In this document: positions 2,756-26,291 of the stretch, in pieces | How the letters are laid out: each line of letters begins with the position of its first letter | Position numbering within the stretch: position 1 is the stretch's first letter | DNA from: Candidatus Levyibacteriota bacterium | GTDB taxonomy: Bacteria; Patescibacteriota; Microgenomatia; Levybacterales; UBA12049 | DNA: 64,000 nucleotides | Reading direction: 5' to 3' | NCBI GenBank assembly: GCA_016186645.1 | Contig: JACPLF010000003.1 | Coordinates: forward strand, 4,112-68,111 | Program-made: the position numbers and the translations under genes | The notes under the pieces: model-generated | What the model was told of the DNA's origin: nothing | The model's database searches: none | The model's input: the letters and a program-made list of their open reading frames with translations, nothing else

Positions 2756-3325
2756 ATGGTTCTTTCGGATCGGGATATTAAGAAGGCTTTAAAATCTAAA
2801 AAAATTGTCATTGCACCTTTTCCTGATCTTGAGACACAGCTTGGTTCCTGTTCCATAGATCTTCGGCTTGGAAATACTTTCAGAGTTTTTGAGTACAGCC
2901 GCAATGCCTACATAGATCCCTCCAAAAAAGATTATACAAAAGAAATCACACGAGAGGTGAGGGTCAAAAAGGGAGAACATTTTGTCATACAGCCCGGAGA
3001 TTTTGTCTTGGCTGTAACTTGGGAAAACGTAAAAATTTCAAGTGATCTCATGGGAAGATTGGAAGGCCGTTCGTCTTTGGGCAGACTTGGACTGGTTGTT
3101 CATTCAACAGCAAGCGTGTTTGAGCCGGGATGGGATGGTAAATGCGTTTTGGAATTGGGTAATTTGGGCAGAATGGCGATATCGCTTACGCCGGGCATGA
3201 GAATTTGCGCAATGACATTTGAGCAGATGTCAACCAAAGTTGAAGTCCCTTATGCTAAGAAAAAAGGAGCCAAATATATTGGGCAAAAAGGTCCGGATGA
3301 GAGCAAAATGCACAAGGAAAATTAG
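2756..3325 (+). CDS. dcd: dCTP deaminase
   Basis: N-terminus MVLSDRDIKKAL...IDLRLGN is the canonical dCTP deaminase/dUTPase-fold signature. Confidence 0.85.
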   Translation: MVLSDRDIKKALKSKKIVIAPFPDLETQLGSCSIDLRLGNTFRVFEYSRNAYIDPSKKDYTKEITREVRVKKGEHFVIQPGDFVLAVTWENVKISSDLMGRLEGRSSLGRLGLVVHSTASVFEPGWDGKCVLELGNLGRMAISLTPGMRICAMTFEQMSTKVEVPYAKKKGAKYIGQKGPDESKMHKEN

Positions 3326-3338
3326 TAATTAGAAATTT

Positions 3339-4010
3339 ATGCTTTATCATGTTGAGCTGGACATTGATTTGAAAAGAAATCCATACAAAGGTTTGTACAT
3401 CGTGTTGGAAGGTATTGATGGGTCTGGCAAGACAACGCAGGTCGAGCGGCTAGCAAAATATTTTGAGAAAAAAGGAAAGAAAGTTGTGAGCACGCGGGAA
3501 CCTCGAAAAGAAGGAATAATTGGCGATATTGTGCAGCAGGTCCTTACGAAGAAAATAAAAATGTCTTCTATTGCACTCCAATATTTATTTTCAACAGATA
3601 GAGTTTTGCATCACGAGGAAGTCATAATCCCAGCTCTTAAGGCTGGAAAAATTGTTATTTCCGATCGGTGTTTCTGGTCCGCAATTGTTTATGGAATTTT
3701 GGACAGGGTGAAGAGTTACGACTCAGAAATTGCAAACTTTTTGTATATCAGCCAATCCATTCTTTCAATGTATCACCAATTTATAGTTCCTGATTTTACT
3801 TTTGCCTTAAGGGTAAAGTTGGAAACAGCATTTGCCAGAATTTCAAAAAAAGATGACAAGATAGAAATTTACGAAGACCGCGAAAAACTAAAACGGGTAA
3901 TTAAAGGCTATGATTGGCTCGCCAAGCAGTTCCCCAAAGAAATTACAGTTGTGGATGGGGAGGGAGAAGTTGAGGAAGTAACTAAGAAAATAATTGAAAA
4001 ATTGACCTAA
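3339..4010 (+). CDS. tmk: thymidylate kinase
   Basis: EGIDGSGKTTQ P-loop characteristic of dTMP kinase. Confidence 0.9.
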   Translation: MLYHVELDIDLKRNPYKGLYIVLEGIDGSGKTTQVERLAKYFEKKGKKVVSTREPRKEGIIGDIVQQVLTKKIKMSSIALQYLFSTDRVLHHEEVIIPALKAGKIVISDRCFWSAIVYGILDRVKSYDSEIANFLYISQSILSMYHQFIVPDFTFALRVKLETAFARISKKDDKIEIYEDREKLKRVIKGYDWLAKQFPKEITVVDGEGEVEEVTKKIIEKLT

Positions 4011-4118
4011 TTAACCTAATTGCTCTAATTCCTAAGTTGGAGTTTGGCCCGTCTTGCCGGCGAGGCAGGGAATTGATTAGGTTAATTAGAGTAATTAGTA
4101 ATTAGTAATTAGAAATTT
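4003..4118. repeat. family 1 MITE-like element, copy 1, between tmk and the dcd paralog
   Basis: cctaattaacctaatt ... aattgattaggttaattag TIRs. GC-rich core ggcccgtcttgccggcgaggcaggg, then (gt)aattag x4. Confidence 0.65.
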
Positions 4119-4125
4119 TAAGAAT

Positions 4126-4701
4126 ATGATTTTGGGGCCGAAAGATTTATTAAAATTAGTCAAAACAAAAAAGCTCGTTGAGGGTTTGTCAGAAAGAGAA
4201 CTGACCAATCCTGAAGGAGCTGGGTTTGATTTGCGCTTGGGGGAAGTTTATTCAATTTCCGGCAACGCTTTTTTGGGCGAAACGCATCGGAAAACCGCGG
4301 ACATAAAATTAGTTGCACAATATAGACATATAAAAAAAATAAGCGATCGCATTAAAAAATCAGATATTAAGACCCAAAAAATTGAGATTAAGCCTGGAGA
4401 TTTTTTCCTGGTCAAGACAATCGAATCGGTAAATATGCCCCAAAATTTAACCGCGAGCATAACTCCAAGGTCTACAACTTACCGCTCGGGTTTGTTTCTT
4501 CGCACGGGAAATGTGCAGCCCGGTTACTGCGGGGGATTGATTTTTGGTTTGAAAAACGAAGGACCAATAACAGTCGAAATCGAAATGGGCGCGAGATTTG
4601 TCCACATCCAGTTTTCGCAAGTCAAAGGCGGGGGAAACATGTACCGCGGCCAATGGCAAGGCGGCCGAGTAACCGCGAGAAAAAAGGAAAAACAGGTTTA
4701 G
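4126..4701 (+). CDS. dCTP deaminase/dUTPase-family paralog
   Basis: MILGPKDL...GFDLRLGEVY N-terminus and C-terminal beta-jellyroll motifs (PGYCGGL). Contains an in-frame copy of the AGCGATCGCAT element at 4342-4352. Confidence 0.7.
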   Translation: MILGPKDLLKLVKTKKLVEGLSERELTNPEGAGFDLRLGEVYSISGNAFLGETHRKTADIKLVAQYRHIKKISDRIKKSDIKTQKIEIKPGDFFLVKTIESVNMPQNLTASITPRSTTYRSGLFLRTGNVQPGYCGGLIFGLKNEGPITVEIEMGARFVHIQFSQVKGGGNMYRGQWQGGRVTARKKEKQV

Positions 4702-4719
4702 TTTTTGCCATTTTGACCA

Positions 4720-4748
4720 TTGACAAAGTTGTAACGGTTGTGTATACT
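4720..4748 (+). promoter_or_regulatory. consensus sigma70 promoter TTGACA-N17-TATACT driving dinJ-yafQ
   Basis: -35 at 4720-4725 (a second TTGACC at 4713-4718). TG then TATACT at 4741-4748. Confidence 0.6.
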
Positions 4749-4827
4749 TCTGTTATCCCAGCAAAATTCTTACTTGCGCCCGAATACTACGTGTTCGCGT
4801 CGCAAGAGCGAACGTGCGGGACAAGCT

Positions 4828-5103
4828 ATGCAGACTGTAATTCATATTAGAGCGGACAAGGAAGTTAAGAAAAATGCGGTTGAGGCTGCCAAGGCACTTG
4901 GTTTGAGCTTGAGTGACGTTATTAATGCCGCGCTTCGCAATTTTATAAGGACCAGAGAGGTAATTTTTTCCAACACTCCGCAAATGACTCCGGAGCTCGA
5001 AAAGTATTTGGGTAAAATAGATAAGGATATTAAGCATAGGAGAAATCTGGTTGGTCCTTTCTATAGCGCCAAGGAAATGGACGAATACCTCGATTCCAAA
5101 TGA
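4828..5103 (+). CDS. dinJ: DinJ/RelB-family antitoxin
   Basis: MQTVIHIRADKEVKKNAVEAAKALGLSLSDVINAALRNFI matches the DinJ N-terminal RHH region. The stop overlaps the downstream toxin start (ATGA). Confidence 0.8.
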   Translation: MQTVIHIRADKEVKKNAVEAAKALGLSLSDVINAALRNFIRTREVIFSNTPQMTPELEKYLGKIDKDIKHRRNLVGPFYSAKEMDEYLDSK

Positions 5104-5357
5104 TAATTCAATTACACAAAACCTTCAAAAAACAATACGAAAAACTAACTAAAGCACAAAAAATAAAATTTAAAGAAAGAAGGAGTATTTTTCTTCAAGA
5201 TGAATTTAATCCTGTTCTTAATAACCACGCTTTGAAAGGCAGGTATCAGGGATACAGGAGTATAAATGTTACAGGAGATATAAGGGTGATTTATGAAAAC
5301 AGCTCAGAAGACGTAGTTTTTGTAAAAATAGGCTCCCACAGCAAGCTGTACGGATAA
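5100..5357 (+). CDS. yafQ: YafQ/RelE-family mRNA interferase toxin
   Basis: 85 aa with LKGRYQGYRSINVTGDIRVIYE...VVFVKIGSHSKLY, a RelE/YafQ fold signature. Translationally coupled to the antitoxin. Confidence 0.8.
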   Translation: MIIQLHKTFKKQYEKLTKAQKIKFKERRSIFLQDEFNPVLNNHALKGRYQGYRSINVTGDIRVIYENSSEDVVFVKIGSHSKLYG

Positions 5358-5457
5358 ATAGTCTTATTGCATCGGGGGAGAAAGTTTGTTACATTAGAAA
5401 AGCAAAATAAAAAACTTAAGCGGAGAATATCAATATCTTGATTTACTGAAAGACGTT

Positions 5458-6366
5458 TTGGAAAACGGAGTTAAGAACGTGGATCGGGGGACTGGTGCAG
5501 TTTCTTTCGGCGTTTTTGGAAGACAAACCCGTTATGATTTGTCAAAAGGTTTTCCTCTTTTGACTACGAAAAAAGTCTATTGGAAAGGAGTTTTGCACGA
5601 GCTTTACTGGTTCATAAAAGGGGATTCAAATATTAAATATCTGGTGGACAACAATGTTCATATTTGGGACGATTACCCATATAAAATTTATAATTCAAAA
5701 TCTAGAATTCAGAATTTACAACCATTAACCAAAGAAGAATTTGTTGAAAAGATTAGGACGGATGATAAATTTGCAAAAAAATGGGGAGAATTGCCAAGAA
5801 TTTATGGAGAAATGTGGCGACGCTGGCCCGCCCGCAATCGAACCATAGACCAATTAGGATGGGTTATTAAAGAGATCAAAGAGGACCAATATGCGCGAAA
5901 TCTGATTGTGACTTCATGGAATCCTGAATATTTATATACAATGGCAATCAACAAAGATGCCTCCCGTTTTCCGATTTGCCACAACATGTACCAAATATCA
6001 GTTAAAGGTGGGAAATTAAATTTGCAGTTATATCAGAGAAGCGCAGATTTGTTTCTCGGCGTGCCTTTTAATATTGCTTCTTATGCCCTTTTGACAATTA
6101 TTCTGGCCCGCGTCACAGGATATAAGCCCGGAGAATTTGTTCATACTTTCGGAGATGCACACATTTACAAAAACCATATAGAGCAGGTTAAAGAGCAGCT
6201 TTCTCGGAAGCCCTATCCTTTTCCAACAGTAAAAATTGATCCAAAAGTCAAAAAACTTTCGGATTTTCAGCCGTCGCTAGTTTATTTAGAGAATTATAGC
6301 TCTCGTCCTCCGATTAAAGGCGAATTAACTGTCGCAGGGGGGCTATATGAAGGAAAGAAAAAATGA
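5458..6366 (+). CDS. thyA: thymidylate synthase (the annotated TTG start is uncertain; see findings)
   Basis: The ThyA N-terminal helix EYQYLDLLKDVLENG lies in-frame upstream of the TTG and after a TAG at 5395-5397. The downstream protein has the ThyA signatures RRWPAR, SWNPE and the catalytic PICH. Confidence 0.85.
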   Translation: MENGVKNVDRGTGAVSFGVFGRQTRYDLSKGFPLLTTKKVYWKGVLHELYWFIKGDSNIKYLVDNNVHIWDDYPYKIYNSKSRIQNLQPLTKEEFVEKIRTDDKFAKKWGELPRIYGEMWRRWPARNRTIDQLGWVIKEIKEDQYARNLIVTSWNPEYLYTMAINKDASRFPICHNMYQISVKGGKLNLQLYQRSADLFLGVPFNIASYALLTIILARVTGYKPGEFVHTFGDAHIYKNHIEQVKEQLSRKPYPFPTVKIDPKVKKLSDFQPSLVYLENYSSRPPIKGELTVAGGLYEGKKK

Positions 6367-6896
6367 AGGTTAGTATCATAGCAGCCATAGGGCAAAATAG
6401 GGAATTGGGGAAAAATAATAAATTAATCTGGCATATTAAAGAGGATTTACAACGATTTAAAAGTCTCACCAAAGGTCACCCAATCATAATGGGGCGAAAA
6501 ACATGGGACTCTTTGCCTTTCAAACCCTTGCCGAGTAGAACAAATATTATTATTACTCGGGATGAAACCTTTGCCCCTCATGAAAATCATCACAAATTTA
6601 GCAATTGCAAAAGTTGTGAGGGTTTAGGATTAGCTGTTGTTTACTCCTTAGTCCAAGCAGTTGAACTTGCAAAAAATTCACCGGGAAGCGAGAATGTTTT
6701 TATTATTGGCGGAGGGCAAATTTATAAAGAAGCGATTGAAAAAGGATTGGCGGATAAACTTTATTTAACTCTTGTTGACAGGACTTTTGATGCAGATACT
6801 TTTTTCCCTGATTATTCGCAGTTTAAGAAAATAGTTTTTGAGGAAGAACACGACAGCGGAGGATGCAAATATAGATTTTTGGAATTGGAACGATAA
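6363..6896 (+). CDS. folA: dihydrofolate reductase
   Basis: MKVSIIAAIGQNRELGKNNKLIWHIKEDLQRFKSLTKGHPIIMGRKTW is the classic DHFR N-terminus. There is a 4-nt overlap with thyA. Confidence 0.85.
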   Translation: MKVSIIAAIGQNRELGKNNKLIWHIKEDLQRFKSLTKGHPIIMGRKTWDSLPFKPLPSRTNIIITRDETFAPHENHHKFSNCKSCEGLGLAVVYSLVQAVELAKNSPGSENVFIIGGGQIYKEAIEKGLADKLYLTLVDRTFDADTFFPDYSQFKKIVFEEEHDSGGCKYRFLELER

Positions 6897-6915
6897 ATAG
6901 TTTATAATTATACCC

Positions 6916-8259
6916 ATGACTGAACTGGGAATCGGGCGAAAAGAAATACTCTCTCAAAGAGAAAGACTATCGGATGAACAGTTGGGCAATTTAATTTCTG
7001 CAGTAGGAAACCTTGAAGGAAAAGCAATTACTCTTCTTTTGATGGAACAAGGAAGAATCTATTCAAAGGGGAACCTTTATCATAAATTTATGGGAGCGCA
7101 AGAAGAAAGAATCGGATGGAAACCTGATCGTGCTATTCCTTTTCAATATTGTCAATTTTCTCTTCTTCCAATTGGTCTTGTTGCACTCGGGGAAAAAGAT
7201 CATGATCTTAAAACCTGGGGATATGGAGTAACTCCCTATGGAGAAGAAGAAGGTATTCCATTGGCAGGACTTCTTCTTGATTTCTCAGAAAAACACCCTG
7301 AATTCTCTTTATCGCAGGTTTTTGGGTCAACGAATTCACCCTCTCAGCCTAAAAATATCCAAACACCTGAAGGTGAGACTGAATTTAAATCTAGATCCCC
7401 TATTCTAAGACTTAAAATCTTCCGGAAGCTTATCGCAGCTAAACTGCCTATAAGAGAATCAGATCTTGCCAGTACAATAGGAGAAAATGCTGGAATGATA
7501 GGTCGACATTTAGCTCTCCTTGCAGATTCGCATATTATTTCCTACGAATCGATAAGAAAAGACCAGCCACAATCCTTCTATGCGCTTTCTTCAGAAAAAC
7601 CAAATGAGAGGCTAACACAGCATAGCGCCTTTTCTTCCCTAACTGAAAAAGTATACAGCTTCTTTCTTAACTTAGGTCCATCAAAACAAATAACTCTTGA
7701 GGATATAACAGACTCTCTTATTGCTGCTAACTCTGAAATGGGAAAATTAAATAAACAGGCTTTAAAGCGCAGGATTAGCACGATCTGTAGTTATCTTGCA
7801 AAACAGCACTATCTTGTACAAGGAAAATTTAAAGAAGGTTTAGAATCAGAAATTACTCTTTCAGATACTCAAAAAGCAACTCTTCTTGAGCTCGTTGCTC
7901 TTATAAATAGATTTCAAGGACAAGAGCCAGAAATTCTTGAAGAGGGAAGAAGAAAAGCTATGAAAATCATTCATAATCCCCACAGGGTATCTCATCTTCT
8001 GAGAAAAGCTAAAGAAAGCTCAGGACGCGCCAATAAGCTATCCCAAGGAGAGGGTGCGGATTTTGTTCTGTCCCTAATAAAAGAGCATCCAGGAGCAAGC
8101 GTTGAAGATATTTTCAAATTCCAGGATAGGAAACCAAGACTTTCAATGGCAAATATAGGCGTTATCGTTCATCGTCTTAGAGGAAACGATAGAGTCTCTG
8201 TTTCAAGAAGAACAGTGAAAAACCGTTTTACAGCAGTGGATTCAGAAAGGGAGAATTGA
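6916..8259 (+). CDS. hypothetical 447-aa protein with several tandem winged-helix (ArsR/MarR-like) modules
   Basis: Repeated segments of the form xxDLASTIGENAGMIGRHLALLADSHIISYE. TATAAT at 6903-6908 lies 7 nt before the ATG. Confidence 0.5.
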   Translation: MTELGIGRKEILSQRERLSDEQLGNLISAVGNLEGKAITLLLMEQGRIYSKGNLYHKFMGAQEERIGWKPDRAIPFQYCQFSLLPIGLVALGEKDHDLKTWGYGVTPYGEEEGIPLAGLLLDFSEKHPEFSLSQVFGSTNSPSQPKNIQTPEGETEFKSRSPILRLKIFRKLIAAKLPIRESDLASTIGENAGMIGRHLALLADSHIISYESIRKDQPQSFYALSSEKPNERLTQHSAFSSLTEKVYSFFLNLGPSKQITLEDITDSLIAANSEMGKLNKQALKRRISTICSYLAKQHYLVQGKFKEGLESEITLSDTQKATLLELVALINRFQGQEPEILEEGRRKAMKIIHNPHRVSHLLRKAKESSGRANKLSQGEGADFVLSLIKEHPGASVEDIFKFQDRKPRLSMANIGVIVHRLRGNDRVSVSRRTVKNRFTAVDSEREN

Positions 8260-8274
8260 TTCTAATTTACATAT

Positions 8275-9591
8275 ATGAAGGCATTGGAAGACATTGATTC
8301 GCAGATTTTTGCACTTATAAAACAGGAAGAAAAACGCACGGCATCCACTTTGGAGATGATTCCTTCCAATAATTATCCAAGTAAAGCAGTTCTTGAGGCG
8401 CTTGGTTCAATATTAAACTACAAATATTCCGAGGGCTATCCGAAAAAACGTTATTATCAAGGGCAAAGAATTGCTGATCAAGTAGAGATTTTGGCTCAAG
8501 AGCGGGCAAAAAAACTTTTTGGTGTACCCCATGCAAATGTACAGCCATATTCAGGAAGTCCTGCAAATACAGCAGTATATTTTGCGCTTTTAGAACCTTT
8601 TAAGGACAAAATTATGGGTTTATCCCTGGCATATGGCGGACACTTAACTCACGGATCTCCTGTTAGTTTTTCCGGAAAATACTTTAAAGTTGTTCCTTAT
8701 CAATTGGGGAAGGATGGACGTTTTGATTATGAAGAGATAGAAAAATTGGCAATTGCGGAGAAACCAAAAATCATTGTTTGCGGGGCAACTGCATACCCAA
8801 GAATTATTGATTTTAAAAGATTTGGGCAAATCGCAGACAAAGTTGGGGCGTATTTGCTCGCGGATATTTCTCACATTGCAGGTTTAATTATTGCTGGAGT
8901 TCACCCATCGCCAGTTGATCACGCCCATATTATCATGACTACAACACACAAAACATTGCGAGGCCCGCGGGGGGCGATGATTATGGTTACAGAAAAAGGA
9001 CTTAAAAAAGACCCGGAATTGGGGAATAAAATTGATAAGGCGGTTTTTCCAGGTTTGCAGGGAGGACCTCATGACAATCAAACAGCGGCAATCGCAGTTG
9101 CCCTTCGGCTGGCTTCGGGTAAACAGTTTAAAGTTTACATTGAGCACGTAGTGCGAAATGCAAAAGTGCTGGCTCAAGAGCTTGTTAAATTCAATTTTAA
9201 ATTAGTAAGCGGTGGAACAGACAATCACTTATTGTTAATTGATTTGTCCAACAAAAAAGTAAATGGCGCAGTTGCGGCTTTGGCTTTGGAAGTTGCGGGC
9301 ATTGTAATTAATAAAAACGCAGTGCCGGGTGACTTAATGCCTCCTTTTTATCCTTCCGGAATTAGATTAGGAACGCCCGCAATCACAACTCGCGGCATGA
9401 AAGAGCGGGAAATGGTAAAAATTGCAAATTGGATAAATGAGACGATTAATGAAGTTTCAAATCGGGTTTTGCCTGCGAATAAAGAACAACGAAAGGAATT
9501 TTTCAAAAATTTCCGTGAAGAAGTTTTCAAAAACAAAAAACTATTACAAATCGCCAAAGAAGTGAGGGAGCTTTGCTCAAAGTTTCCTTAA
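8275..9591 (+). CDS. glyA: serine hydroxymethyltransferase
   Basis: Full-length SHMT; the PLP-lysine region is in THKTLRGPRG. Confidence 0.95.
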   Translation: MKALEDIDSQIFALIKQEEKRTASTLEMIPSNNYPSKAVLEALGSILNYKYSEGYPKKRYYQGQRIADQVEILAQERAKKLFGVPHANVQPYSGSPANTAVYFALLEPFKDKIMGLSLAYGGHLTHGSPVSFSGKYFKVVPYQLGKDGRFDYEEIEKLAIAEKPKIIVCGATAYPRIIDFKRFGQIADKVGAYLLADISHIAGLIIAGVHPSPVDHAHIIMTTTHKTLRGPRGAMIMVTEKGLKKDPELGNKIDKAVFPGLQGGPHDNQTAAIAVALRLASGKQFKVYIEHVVRNAKVLAQELVKFNFKLVSGGTDNHLLLIDLSNKKVNGAVAALALEVAGIVINKNAVPGDLMPPFYPSGIRLGTPAITTRGMKEREMVKIANWINETINEVSNRVLPANKEQRKEFFKNFREEVFKNKKLLQIAKEVRELCSKFP

Positions 9592-9673
9592 GACTTTTAA
9601 TCCGGGCATTTAATCACCAATTTTTAGAATTCAAACTGCTCTCAAAAACAAATTTAGACATCTGATTATTTAC

Positions 9674-9684
9674 AGCGATCGCAT
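9674..9684. repeat. AGCGATCGCAT (HIP1-like 11-mer) copy; five identical copies in the window
   Basis: Copies at 4342-4352, 9674-9684, 23653-23663, 34208-34218 and 40775-40785. Each continues into similar A-rich ATCA(G/T)A context. Confidence 0.7.
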
Positions 9685-9713
9685 AAAAAAATCAGATAAC
9701 TAAATGTAAATTT

Positions 9714-9867
9714 ACCCCGTTACCCAATGTCCCATCCGTTAGGATGCGGGTTTCTAGTGGCGTGAAGCGAAAATTCAATAATGCCCGGACCCGCTTCGCC
9801 CAAGCTCCCGCCTAGACTCGGCGAGGCTGGTCAGCGAGGCGAGCCGTAAGGTCGTGGGTAACGGGGT
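9714..9867. repeat. 154-bp MITE-like element with 13-bp perfect terminal inverted repeats; the interior carries a 57-mer that is also present inside dnaX
   Basis: ACCCCGTTACCCA at 9714-9726 and TGGGTAACGGGGT at 9855-9867. Interior 9788-9844 matches 25870-25926 at 55 of 57 positions. Confidence 0.7.
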
Positions 9868-9978
9868 TTACTGAATTCCTGTTATTGTAAGACTGAGGTG
9901 TCAAGCTAACACACCCCAGGGGTGTACGAGGGGAGTGTTCTGTCAGGAAAAAGTCGAGTTGAAAATGAAATCATCTTA

Positions 9979-9987
9979 TGCTATAAT
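9979..9987 (+). promoter_or_regulatory. extended -10 promoter TGCTATAAT, 8 nt upstream of the ATG at 9996 (leaderless start)
   Basis: Sequence tgctataat ccgatagt ATG. Confidence 0.5.
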
Positions 9988-9995
9988 CCGATAGT

Positions 9996-11522
9996 ATGAT
10001 AGGCACAAAGGAAGCAGTTTCTCGTACATTTCCAGAAACTCTAAGTGGAGAGCAAAACAGCTTCGTAGGTTTTATTGACCAAAATAGAGATCTTTTTGAG
10101 AGACATACTTCTTCGACTTATGAGTTAAGAGATGAACGAGATGGCTGGAGAAATTCTCCCACGATAAGTGAAGTGGCGCATAAGCACGCAGTTCTGTCAC
10201 TGCCTCTTAGGGGGGGGCATAATGCGTCTCCTCCAAACACCAGAGAATGGAAGCGGCATGAAGAGAGGATAAGAGATGCTATCGATAGGGAAATCTTTAG
10301 CAGCCCTGATGGAAAAAATACTTTGCCTGCAAAGCGACCGCCTCTTGATTCAATTTGGGCGAAAACAACTCCTTTACAAAGAGCTGAAATACAAGAATTA
10401 ATGGGCAGGACTGAAGAATTTCAAGCAGACTTCCTTGCGGCAATAGCGCCTTTAGCCGCAGAAGTTGAACAATTAAAAGAGGAATTATTTTCCAATTTCA
10501 AAAATTATCTGTTTTCAGATCCTGACGGCATTTTCGCCGTTAGAGATTTCCTAACAGATAAAAAATTCGCGTCTCAGAGAGAAACCATAAGACCTTTTCT
10601 TGCCAGTTTTGTTCAGAGTGAAGATAAGTTAGCAAAAGACGGCAAGAGAGGAATATTGGGCGAGACAGTTAAAAAGTGGGCAGATGAAATTTCGAAAAGA
10701 GTAACTCCAGTTCTTGTTGACGAATTTGTTGAGTCTATTAGAAATCCTAATGTTCTTGAATGGCTGGAATTTGCAGCAAATATGCCTATAAGCGTTCTGG
10801 GTACAACTGAGGAAAGGGATAAAGATTTGATAAGAGATAGCATTGTCAGTTTTCTTAAGAGCCGTCCGGATGTTTCTTTTTGGCCGCCAGAACTCAAAAA
10901 AGCATTATCCTCTTTTGCTTCATCTAAATATGCTACCGCGCGTTCTTCTGTAGAAAAGGGGTTAGAAGGGTTTAGAAGACCGTTGAGTTCAAAACCGGCA
11001 CCGCAGATCCATCTGGAACCAGAAAAGAAAATAGAAGGGGCGCCTGTTCAGGAAGATGCCAAAAAAGAACCAGATGATAAAAAAGGTGCATCAGAAAAGG
11101 CTGAAAAAAGAAAATATCCGATTGGGATATTGACAAAAGAAAGCGGATCGTCGCATGGGTTTGACATTAGGGTTTTAACAGAAGAGGAACTGAAAGATTT
11201 TTTACGAGAAAAGGCTGATTCTTTTGCTTCTTCGGATTTAAAAATGGCGGGAGATTTTAGAACTATAGTTGCCAGTCTGCGAGAGGATCCTTATGGGTTT
11301 GGCACAAAAAAACTCAACAACATGTCTGTTGGAATTGGTAAAACAAAAAGTTCTCCCATTCGAAGCATGGATCCTGGAAAAAGAATCGGCCTTCATCTTG
11401 AACATCCGGAATCGCAGAAAATTAGAATTGCTTATGTTATTTATGGAAGCGGAGACGATAAAGTAATTGTTATTGAAGGAATTTATAGTCATGATGATTA
11501 TGACAGTAAATTTGGAGCATAG
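9996..11522 (+). CDS. hypothetical 508-aa protein with a C-terminal RelE/ParE-like toxin fold
   Basis: C-terminal about 100 aa (LKDFLRE...DPYGFGTKKLNN...IRIAYVIYGSGDDKVIVIEGIYSHDDY) follows the RelE/ParE pattern. The N-terminal 400 aa are unrecognised. The gene is GC-richer than the flanking sequence. Confidence 0.5.
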   Translation: MIGTKEAVSRTFPETLSGEQNSFVGFIDQNRDLFERHTSSTYELRDERDGWRNSPTISEVAHKHAVLSLPLRGGHNASPPNTREWKRHEERIRDAIDREIFSSPDGKNTLPAKRPPLDSIWAKTTPLQRAEIQELMGRTEEFQADFLAAIAPLAAEVEQLKEELFSNFKNYLFSDPDGIFAVRDFLTDKKFASQRETIRPFLASFVQSEDKLAKDGKRGILGETVKKWADEISKRVTPVLVDEFVESIRNPNVLEWLEFAANMPISVLGTTEERDKDLIRDSIVSFLKSRPDVSFWPPELKKALSSFASSKYATARSSVEKGLEGFRRPLSSKPAPQIHLEPEKKIEGAPVQEDAKKEPDDKKGASEKAEKRKYPIGILTKESGSSHGFDIRVLTEEELKDFLREKADSFASSDLKMAGDFRTIVASLREDPYGFGTKKLNNMSVGIGKTKSSPIRSMDPGKRIGLHLEHPESQKIRIAYVIYGSGDDKVIVIEGIYSHDDYDSKFGA

Positions 11523-11609
11523 GACTCCGGATAGACTTTTAGGACTTCTTCCGCCAACTGGCGGATTTGACTTTCTCGGCTTTAATTGTTATTCTCCGAT
11601 TATAAATTT

Positions 11610-11960
11610 ATGTCAAAAATAGAACGCTTAAGAGAAGAAATAGCTGGCTCAGGCCTATTAAACCATCATACATTAGACGTTATCGGAGTAAAACATAGAC
11701 GTTTTTATGGCGACGAAGAAAGTAAGGGCCATAGAGCAGAACAGCGAAGAGCCCAATTTGCGCAAGGATTCCCAGGGATGCAATTTAATCGTGCATTAGG
11801 AAAAATGCTTGATGGAACCGCAACTCAAGAGGATGTAGAATACGTTTTTAGTAACGTTCATCGATATGAACAAGTGATTGAAAGATGTAAAACGGAAAAA
11901 CGGTCAGTTACAATTACAATTGTTGATTTTACTCCACCCAATTCTGAAAATTTATCCTGA
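11610..11960 (+). CDS. hypothetical protein (116 aa); possible partner of the upstream RelE-fusion gene
   Basis: ORF track (11586 TTG or 11610 ATG). GC-richer than the flanking sequence. Confidence 0.4.
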   Translation: MSKIERLREEIAGSGLLNHHTLDVIGVKHRRFYGDEESKGHRAEQRRAQFAQGFPGMQFNRALGKMLDGTATQEDVEYVFSNVHRYEQVIERCKTEKRSVTITIVDFTPPNSENLS

Positions 11961-11974
11961 CACACTATGTATAT

Positions 11975-12003
11975 TTGTATTATTCTTGGCAATCTATTAT
12001 AAT
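11975..12003 (+). promoter_or_regulatory. sigma70-like promoter TTGTAT-N17-TATAAT upstream of rpsB
   Basis: -35 at 11975-11980, -10 at 11998-12003. Followed by the structured leader 12072-12142. Confidence 0.5.
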
Positions 12004-12071
12004 GCTTATATTCTAACACTCTGATTTTTATCCCTGTCCCGACGAATCGGGAAATAATCAGAGGAGGATAA

Positions 12072-12142
12072 CCCGCCTAAGCTTGCTTTGCAGCTTTTCA
12101 GTATTATTCATACACGCTGCAAAGAGCGCTTTAGCGGCGGGT
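12072..12142. repeat. CCGCCTAAG...CTTTAGCGGCGG palindromic element (family 2), copy in the rpsB 5' leader
   Basis: Arms cccgcctaagc and gctttagcggcggg, with an inner gctttgcagc/gctgcaaagagc hairpin. Homologous copies at 23554-23614 and 23768-23910. Confidence 0.6.
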
Positions 12143-12154
12143 AAAGGGAGAAAT

Positions 12155-12973
12155 ATGAGAGAAATTACACTGGAAGAATTATTGGAGGCAGGCTGTCATT
12201 TTGGCCACCAGGTCACAAGAAGCAATCCCAAGGCTCGTGATTTTATATTTGAAGCCCGCGATAATATCCACATTATTGATTTAGCCAAAACAAAAGAAGG
12301 GCTCGTTGAGGCCGCCGCTTTTGTCAAAGATTTAGCATCCAAAAATGGAACTTTGGTAGTTGTCGGAACAAAAAGACAGGCAAAAGCGATTGTGGAAGAA
12401 GCCCTACGCCTTGCTCAGGATAAAGGAGCAGGGGAAGGACTTTATTATATAACTAACCGTTGGGTTGGAGGACTTTTGACAAATTTCTCCGAGGTTTCCA
12501 AAAACTTTAAAAAATATGCAGATTTCGTAACTGATTTGCAGGATGACGAAGTAAAAGCAAGATATACAAAAAAAGAAATAGGCGGGTGGGAGAAAGAAAG
12601 CCGCAAGTTGGAAAATCTTTACGGCGGAGTTGCGAAAATTACAAAAAAACCTGATGCATTATTTATTATCGACTCCCATTTGGAAGATTTGGCAGTTAGG
12701 GAAGCTTTAGCTACACATATTCCAACTGTCGGAATAGTTGATACAAATGCAGACCCGGCTGTTTTAGACTATCCAATTCCTGCCAACGACGATGCAGTCG
12801 GTTCGATAAAATTAATCGTAAGCTATATAATTGATGCGTGGATAGAAGGCCGCAAGGAAGCCGAACTAAGAATTAAGAATGAAGAATTAAAAGTTAAAAA
12901 AGAAGCTGAAAAGGCAGAAGCAAAAGCATCTAAGGTACAAGTTAAAACCGTTGCAAAAAAGAAAAAGAAATAA
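12155..12973 (+). CDS. rpsB: 30S ribosomal protein S2
   Basis: MREITLEELLEAGCHFGHQ N-terminus. SD AAGGGAG at 12144-12150. Confidence 0.95.
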   Translation: MREITLEELLEAGCHFGHQVTRSNPKARDFIFEARDNIHIIDLAKTKEGLVEAAAFVKDLASKNGTLVVVGTKRQAKAIVEEALRLAQDKGAGEGLYYITNRWVGGLLTNFSEVSKNFKKYADFVTDLQDDEVKARYTKKEIGGWEKESRKLENLYGGVAKITKKPDALFIIDSHLEDLAVREALATHIPTVGIVDTNADPAVLDYPIPANDDAVGSIKLIVSYIIDAWIEGRKEAELRIKNEELKVKKEAEKAEAKASKVQVKTVAKKKKK

Positions 12974-13483: not shown

Positions 13484-13963
13484 ATGTCTATTAAAGAAGC
13501 ATTACAAAGGAGAGAAACGGAAAGAGTAGGGAGAATCCCGCAAACGGACCTGACCGGGGAAGCTCGTCTATTAAGAGTTGCGGCAGATCGTAGACTTCTT
13601 GACAAGGCGAAAGTTCCCGCACTATTAGATGAATTAATGGAAGTTATTAAGTCAGAGTTTCCAGATGTGGAAAAGATGACAGTCATCAGCCCAGAAGACG
13701 CGTCCCTGTCTATCGTATGGAATCGTAGAGATGAAATACTATCTGGTGCCACACCAGAGATGGTTCCAATCTGTTGGGTAAACAAGATAACGATTATGCC
13801 GGATTCACAGGCTTCTGAACTAGCTATTGAGGGGTATGAGACAGAAATATTGACAAGAAAACAATGGGGCAATCATGGGGTTTTAGAAGGTGCTATTGTT
13901 CGGGCGTACAGGAACCCATCGCATGTTGTTGATATTCCGACTACAACCATGGTCCCACATTGA
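13484..13963 (+). CDS. hypothetical protein (159 aa), GC-richer than its surroundings; sits where pyrH usually lies
   Basis: Strong SD AAGGGGGTG; no family recognised. Confidence 0.5.
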   Translation: MSIKEALQRRETERVGRIPQTDLTGEARLLRVAADRRLLDKAKVPALLDELMEVIKSEFPDVEKMTVISPEDASLSIVWNRRDEILSGATPEMVPICWVNKITIMPDSQASELAIEGYETEILTRKQWGNHGVLEGAIVRAYRNPSHVVDIPTTTMVPH

Positions 13964-24704: not shown

Positions 24705-26291
24705 ATGGTTTTTTATCGAAAATATCGTCCGCAAAAAATAGAAGAGCTGGATAGTAAAGAAGTTAGGGACAAACTTCATAGTGTTTTGGGAAGCTCCTCT
24801 GTTTCTCATGCTTTTCTTTTTACAGGCCCCAAAGGTTTGGGAAAAACCTCAGCTGCAAGAATTGTCGCAAAAGTCCTAAACTGTGAAAAGGTGAGAAATG
24901 AGAAAGGAGAAATGAAAAATAAAGATAAAACTTCCCATCTCTCATCTCTCACTTCTCATTTCCGTGCGGTTGAGCCGTGCAATAAATGTGAACAATGCAT
25001 CTCGATTACACGCGGAACAAATCTAGACGTTTTGGAAATAGATGGTGCTTCAAATAGGGGAATAGATGAAATAAGAGATCTTAGGGAAAAAGTAAAACTT
25101 TCTCCAGCCGGGAGCCGCAAAAAAGTTTATATTATCGATGAAGTTCACATGTTAACCGCAGAAGCGTTTAATGCGCTTCTTAAAACTTTGGAAGAACCGC
25201 CAAGTCATGTTGTTTTTATTCTCTGCACAACAGAACCTCACAAAGTGCCAAGCACAATTCTGTCCCGTTGTTTACATATTCAATTTAGAAAAGCAACAGA
25301 GGCAGAACTGGTCAGATCGTTTGAAAGAATAATTAAAGCGGAAAAAATAAAAGCCGACAAAGAAGCCTTAGATTTAATCGCTAGTCTTTCAGACGGTAGC
25401 TTTAGAGACGGATCAAAACTTTTGGAAGAAATAGCTCTTTTGGCAGGACGTAAAAAAATTGCAAAAGAATTGATAGAAGAAAAATATTATGTATCAAGTA
25501 TTAAGTATCATATTAGAGCGATGGTGAAATGTTTGGATGCGAAAGACACAAAAGGAGGACTTGAACTTGTTTCAAAGCTGACAGAACAGGGCATTGACAT
25601 GAAGTTTTTTATTGAAGAATTAATACAGACTCTCCATAGTTTGTTACTTCAAAAAGTAGGGATTAAGAATGATCAAGAATTGGAAGTTCAAATTCTAGAC
25701 TTTGATATCAATGGAATCAAAAGACTGGTAGAATTATTTGCAAAAGCGCACAGCGAATTAAAATATGCGGTTTTGCCCCAGATTCCTTTGGAGCTGGTGA
25801 TTGTGGAATGGGGAATCCAGAAAACTCAGAATACTCAGCAATCCGGCAATTCTGATAATCAGACGATCAGACCCGCTTCACCGAAGCTCCCGCCTAGACT
25901 CGGCGAGGCTGGTCAGCGAGGCGAGCAATCTGATTCTCCGAGTATTCAGAAAATGGTGAAAGCACAAAAAAATGAAATACCGCTTAATGTTGCTCAGCAG
26001 AATATGATGGGGTACAGTGAGAATAATGCGTTGTGGGTCTCTTTGATAGATAGAGTGAAGGCTTACAATCATTCTATTGCCGGGGTATTGCGCGGATGCA
26101 GGATAAAAAGTTATGATGGTAAGAGTTTAATAATAGAAGCAAATTTCAAATTCCATAAAGATAAATTAGGGGAAATAAAAACACAACAGGTTTTGGAAGA
26201 AGCATGCAAAGAAATTACGAAGAAAAATGTTAAAGTAGAAGTGATGATGAAACCCGCCGTCGCTAAAGCTTTGGCGGGCGATGGGAGGTGA
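24705..26291 (+). CDS. dnaX: DNA polymerase III subunits gamma/tau
   Basis: MVFYRKYRPQKIEEL, GPKGLGKTS P-loop, a zinc module with CNKCEQC, and a box VII LSRC sensor. Carries nested GC-rich repeat inserts at 24930-24965 and 25857-25943. Confidence 0.9.
   Translation: MVFYRKYRPQKIEELDSKEVRDKLHSVLGSSSVSHAFLFTGPKGLGKTSAARIVAKVLNCEKVRNEKGEMKNKDKTSHLSSLTSHFRAVEPCNKCEQCISITRGTNLDVLEIDGASNRGIDEIRDLREKVKLSPAGSRKKVYIIDEVHMLTAEAFNALLKTLEEPPSHVVFILCTTEPHKVPSTILSRCLHIQFRKATEAELVRSFERIIKAEKIKADKEALDLIASLSDGSFRDGSKLLEEIALLAGRKKIAKELIEEKYYVSSIKYHIRAMVKCLDAKDTKGGLELVSKLTEQGIDMKFFIEELIQTLHSLLLQKVGIKNDQELEVQILDFDINGIKRLVELFAKAHSELKYAVLPQIPLELVIVEWGIQKTQNTQQSGNSDNQTIRPASPKLPPRLGEAGQRGEQSDSPSIQKMVKAQKNEIPLNVAQQNMMGYSENNALWVSLIDRVKAYNHSIAGVLRGCRIKSYDGKSLIIEANFKFHKDKLGEIKTQQVLEEACKEITKKNVKVEVMMKPAVAKALAGDGR

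Follow-up and report, generated by a model that had tools for sequence, protein, structure and literature searches.

The locus and its promoter

The window (the whole 64,000-nt stretch of DNA analysed here) encodes a 508-aa protein at 9996..11522 (+), listed in GenBank as hypothetical protein HYW62_00455 of Candidatus Levybacteria. The first-pass annotation had called this ORF a gene, and its reality is borne out by 20 full-length homologues (39–59% identity) and by a profile search that enlarged the family to 186 clusters at 50% identity. The gene upstream is glyA, and we found no recognisable antitoxin ahead of the 508-aa gene by Pfam, as the first reading of the locus had also stated.

Transcription would start from a sigma-70-type promoter at 9959..9987 (+), made up of TTGAAA (9959–9964), 17 nt, and the extended −10 element TGcTATAAT (9979–9987), with 11 of 12 consensus positions matched. 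A Shine-Dalgarno sequence is absent ahead of the gene, and because the −10 element ends 8 nt 5′ of the ATG, the mRNA should be leaderless or nearly so; the leaderless-type promoter proposed earlier is therefore upheld. The motif TATAATccgatagtATG was kept at homologous loci L004, L005 and L015–L019 and nearly kept at L001, its spacing to the family gene was also kept in relatives, and a −10-like box 6–9 nt 5′ of the ATG was further seen at L009, L018 and L022. In a loose scan, 19 of 62 window ORFs carried a −10-like box close to a possible ATG start. The leaderless layout is a weak distinguishing feature, and its conservation across species is the better evidence. Just 3′ of the stop codon, at 11550..11565 (+), a GC hairpin with a T-rich run after it resembles a terminator, by consensus match only. 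The family gene is predicted to be monocistronic. An Rfam search over 9000–12500 gave no match.

The gene and a 116-aa ORF downstream of it had been described as GC-richer than their flanks, but the composition does not bear this out. GC was 0.402 (z +0.57) for the 508-aa gene and 0.382 (z −0.05) for the 116-aa ORF, where 63 window ORFs averaged 0.383 (sd 0.033), and GC3 of both fell under the window average. On these values, horizontally acquired cargo marked by GC or codon deviation was rejected. A GC-rich stretch was noted nearby, an intergenic element at 9715–9866 (61% GC).

Family and chromosomal position

Pfam, NCBIfam, PADLOC and PHROG hold no model for this family, and our search of the literature on RelE fusions in CPR bacteria found nothing relevant. 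Few clusters carried a taxonomic label; the labels among cluster names were Levybacteria, Roizmanbacteria (QQG44238.1) and a single "Micrarchaeota" record. Some members were found in archaeal contexts. We describe these proteins as a new two-domain family of CPR bacteria (Levybacteria and other Microgenomates) and DPANN-type archaea.

The family gene, present in one copy per locus, lies between glyA and rpsB-tsf-frr(-rseP) even in relatives as distant as 25% identity. Upstream, glyA or thyA-folA was found in the window and at L001, L004, L005, L008, L009, L013, L014, L018 and L022; rpsB-tsf follows directly 3′ at L001/L002/L012, L004, L011, L013 and L018. The first-pass annotation had itself named syntenic conservation as a housekeeping gene as evidence that would count against its reading, and conserved synteny is what the relatives display. 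Searches with the family protein of phage records, plasmid records and viral contigs gave no match; together with the syntenic position, this differs from the patchy, mobile distribution in islands, plasmids and prophages that is typical of type II toxin-antitoxin (TA) systems. Inheritance of the gene is vertical, and its place on the chromosome is fixed. Its proximity to translation genes may reflect no more than gene order being conserved in small genomes. Members of Roizmanbacteria type, and some others, were located elsewhere, and a PIN-MazE pair adjoins one long-form locus.

Sequence divergence is rapid. At L018 the family protein shows 25% identity, against 70% for rpsB, and it evolves 3–4 times faster than its neighbours, a rate unusual for a housekeeping factor.

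Domain architecture

The N-terminal domain (residues 1–331; 9996..10988, +) is all-helical, and no relative of it was detected beyond the family; it matched nothing in the PDB and has no recognisable fold. Its own N-terminal part carries a conserved motif, E14..N21-x-F23..F26 and E47..W51..S54. A Lys/Glu-rich linker follows (residues 332–375; 10989..11120, +), predicted to be disordered (pLDDT 25–36) and with a mean identity of 34% versus 50–56% for the two domains. The C-terminal domain of RelE/ParE/YoeB fold occupies residues 376–508 (11121..11519, +), and its core starts near residue 394. The C-domain has a median pI of 9.5, compared with 5.8 in the N-domain. No Pfam domain was found in the 508-aa protein, and no secretion or trafficking domain; maximum 19-residue hydropathy was 0.94, so neither a transmembrane nor a signal segment is present. 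Fusion of such a C-terminal domain to a large N-terminal region without recognisable fold had been flagged as unusual, and we agree. At L025 the gene looks split (379 aa + 121 aa). We rejected this as a true fission; the break is a frameshift inside the linker and is thus not Rosetta-stone evidence.

Across the family the same C-terminal domain recurs with N-terminal regions of at least three unrelated kinds, so that the C-terminus is constant and the N-terminus variable. A common effector on non-homologous N-terminal regions is what might be expected of single-chain sensor-effector defence by abortive infection. As in the CARF-RelE protein Cami1, which offers a precedent, the N-domain would sense a phage or host cue and free the RelE-like RNase, stopping translation. 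The fast evolution of the protein relative to its neighbours and the PIN-MazE pair adjoining one long-form locus are consistent with this. However, the position between core operons has been stable over deep divergence, most loci have no defence-island neighbours, and PADLOC gave no match. Cas genes were missing from every locus gene list, no CRISPR association was seen, and the conservation of a near-consensus promoter between relatives suggests steady expression. On balance we consider a defence role unlikely.

The C-terminal domain and its active-site-like residues

The RelE/ParE pattern that had been read from the last part of the protein proved real at the level of fold. The structure model of the C-domain (pLDDT 94.3) is a compact alpha/beta RelE/ParE fold in which an alpha1-alpha2 hairpin is followed by an antiparallel beta-sheet, with overall topology beta-alpha-alpha-beta-beta-beta-beta-alpha. 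Foldseek gave a match to the YoeB/ParE structure 6n90_A (TM 0.58), and the fold search also matched 8phb_A (Cami1). At the sequence level, a profile of 73 C-domains against the PDB placed YoeB at the top with borderline significance (E 0.011 and 0.013), with a collinear alignment across helix 2 and the strands R-V-V-Y ... H. Pfam searches of the 73 C-domains gave ParE, YoeB or HigB matches in eight, all sub-threshold; these were the sole recurring families. Aligning the C-domain profile with single E. coli YoeB and RelE sequences in hhalign yielded only short collinear segments at a probability of <10%, which lend weak support to the mapping of the Arg. A word-indexed homologue search with a diverse C-domain alignment gave no match. 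The sequence similarity to RelE and YoeB lies in the twilight zone, and at the level of fold the 508-aa protein ends in a divergent form of the toxin-type RelE/ParE/YoeB (BECR) fold.

Conservation was counted over the 73 diverse C-domains. Conserved positions included R477 (99%), H499 (97%), P432 (96%) and G436 (95%). Arg477 (codon 11424..11426, +) aligns, at borderline significance, with the Arg in the "HRVVY" strand of YoeB or in "YRLVY", a position that we take to be that of E. coli YoeB Arg65 and RelE Arg61. His499 (codon 11490..11492, +) is the His of S-H-D-D-Y, and its counterpart in the alignment is the YoeB His near the C-terminus, His83 in E. coli. In E. coli YoeB, Arg65 and His83 are catalytic, and His83 is the general acid (PMC3814384). 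The first-pass annotation had taken the catalytic positions to be degenerate and the domain to be possibly inactive; the near-invariance of these two residues, both aligned with the YoeB pair, therefore gives no sign of inactivation. Going by these alignments, the C-domain appears to retain the Arg and the His with which YoeB carries out ribosome-dependent mRNA cleavage.

Other elements of the YoeB and RelE sites are harder to place. The general base of YoeB is Glu46, YoeB His83 is followed directly by Tyr84, and RelE has the pair Lys52/Lys54 in the alpha2-beta2 region. In the C-domain the alpha2-beta2 region reads G-x-G-T-x-K-L, with K439 60% conserved, and the PDB profile alignment of the 73 C-domains identified no acidic residue aligned to Glu46. 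The residue after H499 is D, E or N rather than Tyr, with an aromatic at +3 in 86% of members. The failure to find counterparts of Glu46 and of Tyr84 is consistent with a domesticated, catalytically silent fold, tethered to a structural helical domain and serving as a binding module for the ribosome, RNA or, as in ParE, gyrase. The strong conserved promoter of a gene without an antitoxin suggests low toxicity and would also suit a silent module. Against it, Arg477 and His499 are near-invariant and occupy the catalytic Arg and His positions of YoeB, and we regard this reading as improbable.

The 116-aa ORF

The downstream ORF (HYW62_00460) exists as first annotated, from an ATG at 11610 to 11960 (+), or as 124 aa from a TTG at 11586. 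The proposal that it encodes a partner, with the two genes forming a polymorphic-toxin cargo/immunity pair or a higBA-like type II TA module in which the 116-aa protein is the antitoxin or immunity protein, fared poorly. The order of the two genes, toxin first, does resemble higBA. Of about 17 loci, three have the ORF linked to the family gene, and the order is not the same in all: in the window and at L005 (52% identity) it lies downstream, at L015 (44% identity) upstream. Its product has weak ArpU-like matches in two libraries (E 0.036 and 0.045), as might suit an ArpU-type regulator.

Against this, most loci with a readable neighbourhood lack the ORF. At L001, L004, L011, L013 and L018 rpsB comes directly after the family gene, with no such ORF in between, and no co-directional partner was found at L007, L008, L021, L023, L024 or L026; most loci have no conserved adjacent antitoxin or immunity gene. 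The ORF also sits after the terminator-like hairpin and has a promoter-like site of its own at 11567..11595 (+; TTGACT, 17 nt, TATTCT), with the same layout at L005. A polymorphic toxin is further contradicted by the missing trafficking, signal and transmembrane segments and by a C-domain that is constant while the N-terminus varies. A database search with the 116-aa protein recovered itself alone, and it matched nothing in phage, plasmid or viral searches, as was the case for the family protein. The partner reading is largely refuted, and we give it very little credence. The 116-aa ORF is an incidental, lineage-specific accessory insertion between the family gene and rpsB, not a conserved partner.

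A partner-less RelE/YoeB-like protein in small genomes

To our knowledge, RelE/ParE-fold domains are nearly confined to small toxins encoded in mobile two-gene modules, apart from a few fusions such as Cami1 and CdiA tips. The family described here is unusual in that the fold ends a protein of about 500 aa whose gene occupies a constant place in the core genome without a neutralising partner, in that the Arg/His pair of active YoeB is preserved, and in that its members are found in CPR bacteria and archaea, both with tiny genomes.

The explanation that we favour, held tentatively and at somewhat less than an even chance, is a vertically inherited, partner-less, cytoplasmic and probably regulated nuclease that targets RNA or the ribosome, with a helical N-domain and a YoeB-like C-domain. 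The strong promoter would produce a leaderless mRNA. By analogy with RelE and YoeB, the basic C-domain would act on RNA, most likely ribosome-bound mRNA in the A site, while the N-domain would control or target it in cis, taking the place of a separate antitoxin. The suggestion that the protein is a ribosome-associated factor, also raised in the first-pass annotation, is plausible.

A bolder version goes further, and we think it rather doubtful as a whole: that CPR bacteria and DPANN archaea share, probably by cross-domain transfer, a vertically kept, antitoxin-less, ribosome-dependent RNase of RelE/YoeB type, regulated in cis by its N-domain, the toxin fold having been recruited for routine control of translation or mRNA turnover in ultra-small symbiotic cells. 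Should the C-domain be an active ribosome-dependent nuclease, the family would represent either a domesticated, cis-regulated "toxin" in normal physiology or single-gene immunity. The gene would then also offer a concrete target, one that can be cloned, for work on how uncultivated lineages control translation.

Comparison with known systems

YoeB is the closest known relative by PDB profile, with a helix 2 ending in D-P-Y/F, an R-V-V-Y strand and a near-C-terminal His that are collinear with the C-domain. It differs in being a protein of 84–90 aa, whereas here the protein has 508 aa with a 330-aa N-domain and a linker. YoeB is paired with a YefM-type antitoxin in the type II TA system YefM-YoeB, and no such antitoxin is present here; the family protein does not reach the Pfam YoeB_toxin threshold, and its gene is a syntenic chromosomal gene of CPR bacteria and archaea. 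RelE, HigB, YafQ and ParE are likewise small stand-alone toxins with adjacent antitoxins. Sequence identity to them is 4–20%, and their catalytic sets differ: RelE catalysis uses Lys/Arg/Tyr, and ParE is not an RNase.

Cami1, a CARF-RelE effector of type III CRISPR, is a precedent for the fusion of RelE to a regulatory domain (PMC11229360). Like the 508-aa protein, it has its RelE-fold domain at the C-terminus, attached to a larger regulatory domain within one chain, and lacks an antitoxin. Its CARF domain and CRISPR neighbourhood are missing here: Pfam, NCBIfam and PADLOC gave no CARF match in the 508-aa protein, whose N-domain is an unrelated helical domain and whose gene has a fixed position beside rpsB. 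CdiA-CT and other polymorphic toxins can also end in a RelE-like (BECR) domain, but they have delivery domains and an immunity gene, which are absent here. Their C-terminus is the variable part, whereas in the 508-aa family it is the C-terminus that stays constant.

RelE/YoeB-type fold of the C-terminal domain

The 508-aa ORF (9996..11522, + strand) was thought in the first-pass annotation to end in a RelE/ParE-type domain, and at the level of fold this was borne out. Its product matches exactly the GenBank entry 'hypothetical protein HYW62_00455 [Candidatus Levybacteria bacterium]', which places the window in a CPR (Microgenomates) genome. No Pfam, NCBIfam, PADLOC or PHROG model matched either the whole protein or its final 109-138 residues. 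In the AF2 model of the whole protein (pLDDT 77.7), residues 17-326 are helical, residues 332-370 form a disordered linker and residues 376-506 an alpha/beta domain; the model's single meaningful Foldseek match in the PDB was a YoeB/ParE toxin, 6n90_A (probability 0.66, target TM 0.58). Modelled alone, the C-domain gave a pLDDT of 94.3 and a pTM of 0.87, with the topology beta-alpha-alpha-beta-beta-beta-beta-alpha. We aligned 73 diverse C-domain sequences; the top match of this profile to PDB sequences was again YoeB (E 0.011 and 0.013), collinear across helix 2 (...L..DPY) and the strand-turn-strand RvvY...H. When the 73 domains were scanned singly with Pfam, the sole recurring families were ParE_toxin (4), YoeB_toxin (2), HigB_toxin (1) and ParE-like_toxin (1), all below threshold. 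Sequence similarity to RelE/YoeB therefore lies in the twilight zone; the structural assignment, made on predicted models, is nonetheless consistent. In hhalign comparisons with individual YoeB and RelE sequences, the C-domain profile reached probabilities of <10%.

The motif S-H-D-D-Y had been read as a loss of catalytic residues. Conservation over the 73 domains indicates the opposite: R477 is conserved at 99%, H499 at 97%, P432 at 96% and G436 at 95%, so that the RelE/ParE/YoeB fold carries a near-invariant Arg/His pair. R477 coincides with the Arg of 'HRVVY' in the alignment to YoeB, and H499 with the terminal His. When E. coli YoeB cleaves mRNA in the A site, its Arg65 stabilises the transition state and its His83 serves as general acid (PMC3814384); R477 and H499 are their probable counterparts, by way of the S. 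aureus YoeB alignment. The residue following H499 is not Tyr, and an aromatic stands at +3 in 86% of members. Conservation across the 73 domains identified no counterpart of the YoeB general base Glu46. Median pI is 9.5 for the C-domain, which is basic, and 5.8 for the mildly acidic N-domain; neither signal peptide nor transmembrane segment was found in family proteins. We infer that RNA is the target of the C-domain, most likely mRNA on the ribosome, as for YoeB and RelE; that the domain is a silent binding module, possibly ParE-like, we consider improbable.

Occurrence and architectures of the family

A word-indexed search found 20 full-length homologues at 39-59% identity, and 186 clusters (50% identity) reached E <= 1e-3 in an exhaustive profile search, 127 of them with E <= 1e-10. 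The family gene is real and conserved. Most members are two-domain proteins of 450-560 aa, always with the C-domain at the extreme C-terminus. The N-domain, helical and novel, had no match by any method used; its conserved positions are mainly hydrophobic or aromatic, joined by an N-terminal motif (E14, N21, F23, F26) that lies where disorder is predicted.

Archaeal settings were seen for only two members, both in one clade of 27 representatives. P0062 (L021 7001-8503) adjoins genes for Spt4, Rpb7/RpoE, ribosomal S10 and a class Ic aminoacyl-tRNA synthetase, and P0074 (L006 5917-7407) is on a record labelled Candidatus Micrarchaeota. Because both match the family profile over nearly its full length, the whole two-domain architecture is common to CPR bacteria and archaea. 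Their settings imply that CPR bacteria and DPANN-type archaea have shared genes.

In proteins of 600-800 aa, such as QQG44238.1 (complete Roizmanbacteria genome), the same C-domain is joined to two further types of N-terminal region. No relationship was detected between these two, or between either and the 330-aa domain (hmmsearch; hhalign probability <1%), so three unrelated kinds of N-terminal region carry the C-domain. The Roizmanbacteria-type long forms lie in a different conserved neighbourhood, with transaldolase and glutaredoxin genes. At L023 a PIN-domain and MazE/PrlF-type antitoxin pair (9200-9878) lies on the opposite strand immediately downstream of a 702-aa long-form gene. At least one stand-alone C-domain of 107 aa exists, with both flanking genes on the opposite strand; member P0145 is monocistronic, also between opposite-strand genes. 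The L025 member (1288-2858) is called as separate 379-aa and 121-aa genes owing to a frameshift inside the linker, either an assembly error or a pseudogene, and we rejected it as a true split member.

A fixed place in a core gene neighbourhood

The neighbourhood in the window is entirely on the + strand. Upstream are dcd, tmk, dcd, thyA, folA, a 447-aa ORF and glyA (8275-9591); the family gene is followed by the 116-aa ORF, rpsB (start 12155), tsf, a 159-aa ORF, frr and rseP. Directly 3' of the family gene, rpsB-tsf recurs in L001/L002/L012 (39% identity), L004 (41%), L011 (46%), L013 (37%) and L018 (25%), followed by frr-rseP where the contig extends far enough. Within a few kb upstream, glyA, often with thyA-folA, is found in the window, L001, L004, L005, L008, L009, L013, L014, L018 and L022. 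At L018 the family protein is 25% identical, versus 70% for rpsB, 72% for tsf, 61% for rseP and 49% for glyA; the gene has been inherited in place, yet is evolving three to four times faster than its neighbours. Each locus has one family gene, and no match to the protein was found among viral contigs, phage records or plasmid records.

A compact single-strand dTMP-cycle cluster (2756-9591: dcd, tmk, a second dcd paralogue, thyA, folA, glyA) also stands ahead of the family gene in L008 and L022, both distant relatives. The 447-aa ORF (6916-8259, between folA and glyA) and the 159-aa ORF (13484-13963, between tsf and frr) lack significant family matches, each within an operon that is conserved in other respects; L001 has a 64-aa ORF in place of the latter.

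This context is decisive against the proposal that the gene and the 116-aa ORF form a cargo/immunity pair, and largely excludes a TA module or polymorphic toxin. The 116-aa ORF (ATG 11610 to 11960, + strand; 124 aa if the start is TTG 11586) is not a conserved neighbour: homologues lie downstream in the closest relative (L005, 52% identity) and, as 138 aa, upstream of the family gene in L015 (44%), and none at any other readable locus. A database search returned only itself, Pfam gave nothing at curated cut-off (best DPBB_1, E 0.16), and two libraries gave weak similarity to ArpU-type regulators (E 0.036 and 0.045). Between it and the family gene lie a terminator-like hairpin (11550-11565) and, at 11567-11595, a second promoter-like site, so it has a promoter-like site of its own. 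Nor is the pair GC-enriched, as had been claimed: among 63 window ORFs, GC is 0.402 for the family gene (z +0.57) and 0.382 for the 116-aa ORF (z -0.05), and GC3 is below average in both. The rpsB promoter/leader start motif TATTCTAACACTCTG lies 3' of the ORF in the window and of its homologue in L015, and all this is consistent with a small insertion separating the family gene from rpsB. This motif (-10 and transcript start; 12009-12023 in the window) also stands ahead of the family gene in L016 and L019, which suggests that promoter and small ORF were locally rearranged or duplicated together. The family gene is without partner and vertically inherited in a core neighbourhood.

Promoter and structured elements

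A near-consensus promoter (TTGAAA 9959-9964, 17 nt, TGcTATAAT 9979-9987, + strand) stops 8 nt short of the ATG, and no Shine-Dalgarno sequence intervenes. Promoter and spacing are conserved: TATAATccgatagtATG is present in L004, L005 and L015-L019, and nearly so in L001, and a -10-like box lies 6-9 nt ahead of the ATG even in L009 and L018 (25-30% identity). The layout supports function but is not distinctive, since it may be common in the genome (19/62 ORFs in a loose scan).

Between glyA and this promoter is a 152-nt element (9715-9866; 61% GC versus 38% for the genome), bounded by an inverted repeat of 12-13 bp (CCCCGTTACCCA/TGGGTAACGGGG). Its predicted RNA fold is -70.9 kcal/mol (z -3.5), and Rfam gave no match. 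A second copy of the 57-nt core (9788-9844), 96% identical, lies at 25870-25926, inside a 528-aa ORF (24705-26291), whereas the homologues in L004 and L005 lack the element upstream. A small mobile repeat or an unclassified RNA could each account for it. The rpsB leader (12018-12154) is also strongly structured (-50.2 kcal/mol, z -4.4), its 5' end pairing with sequence right before GGAGG. Among L001, L004, L011, L013 and L018 this outer stem is kept with differing sequences (CUCUGAUU/AAUCAGAG, CAUUCAG/CUGAAUG, CAUCC/GGAUG), which look like compensatory changes. The leader, with no Rfam match at E <= 1, is a candidate S2 autoregulatory leader.

Relation to known systems

In Cami1, a CARF domain controls or targets a RelE domain in cis (PMC11229360), and by analogy the N-terminal region here may control or target the C-domain in the same way. 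The modular N-termini and fast evolution would suit a single-chain defence effector, but synteny is fixed and defence neighbours are absent at most loci, and we think this doubtful beside a cis-controlled domain acting on RNA. The case for a previously unannotated family is solid, and with its function inferred it presents a toxin fold put to unusual use in poorly understood organisms. None of the libraries searched (Pfam, NCBIfam, PADLOC, PHROG) covers the family or its architecture. The family stands apart from type II TA modules, polymorphic toxins and Cami1, and its C-domain from YoeB sensu stricto, belonging at the level of fold only to a superfamily that is itself known.
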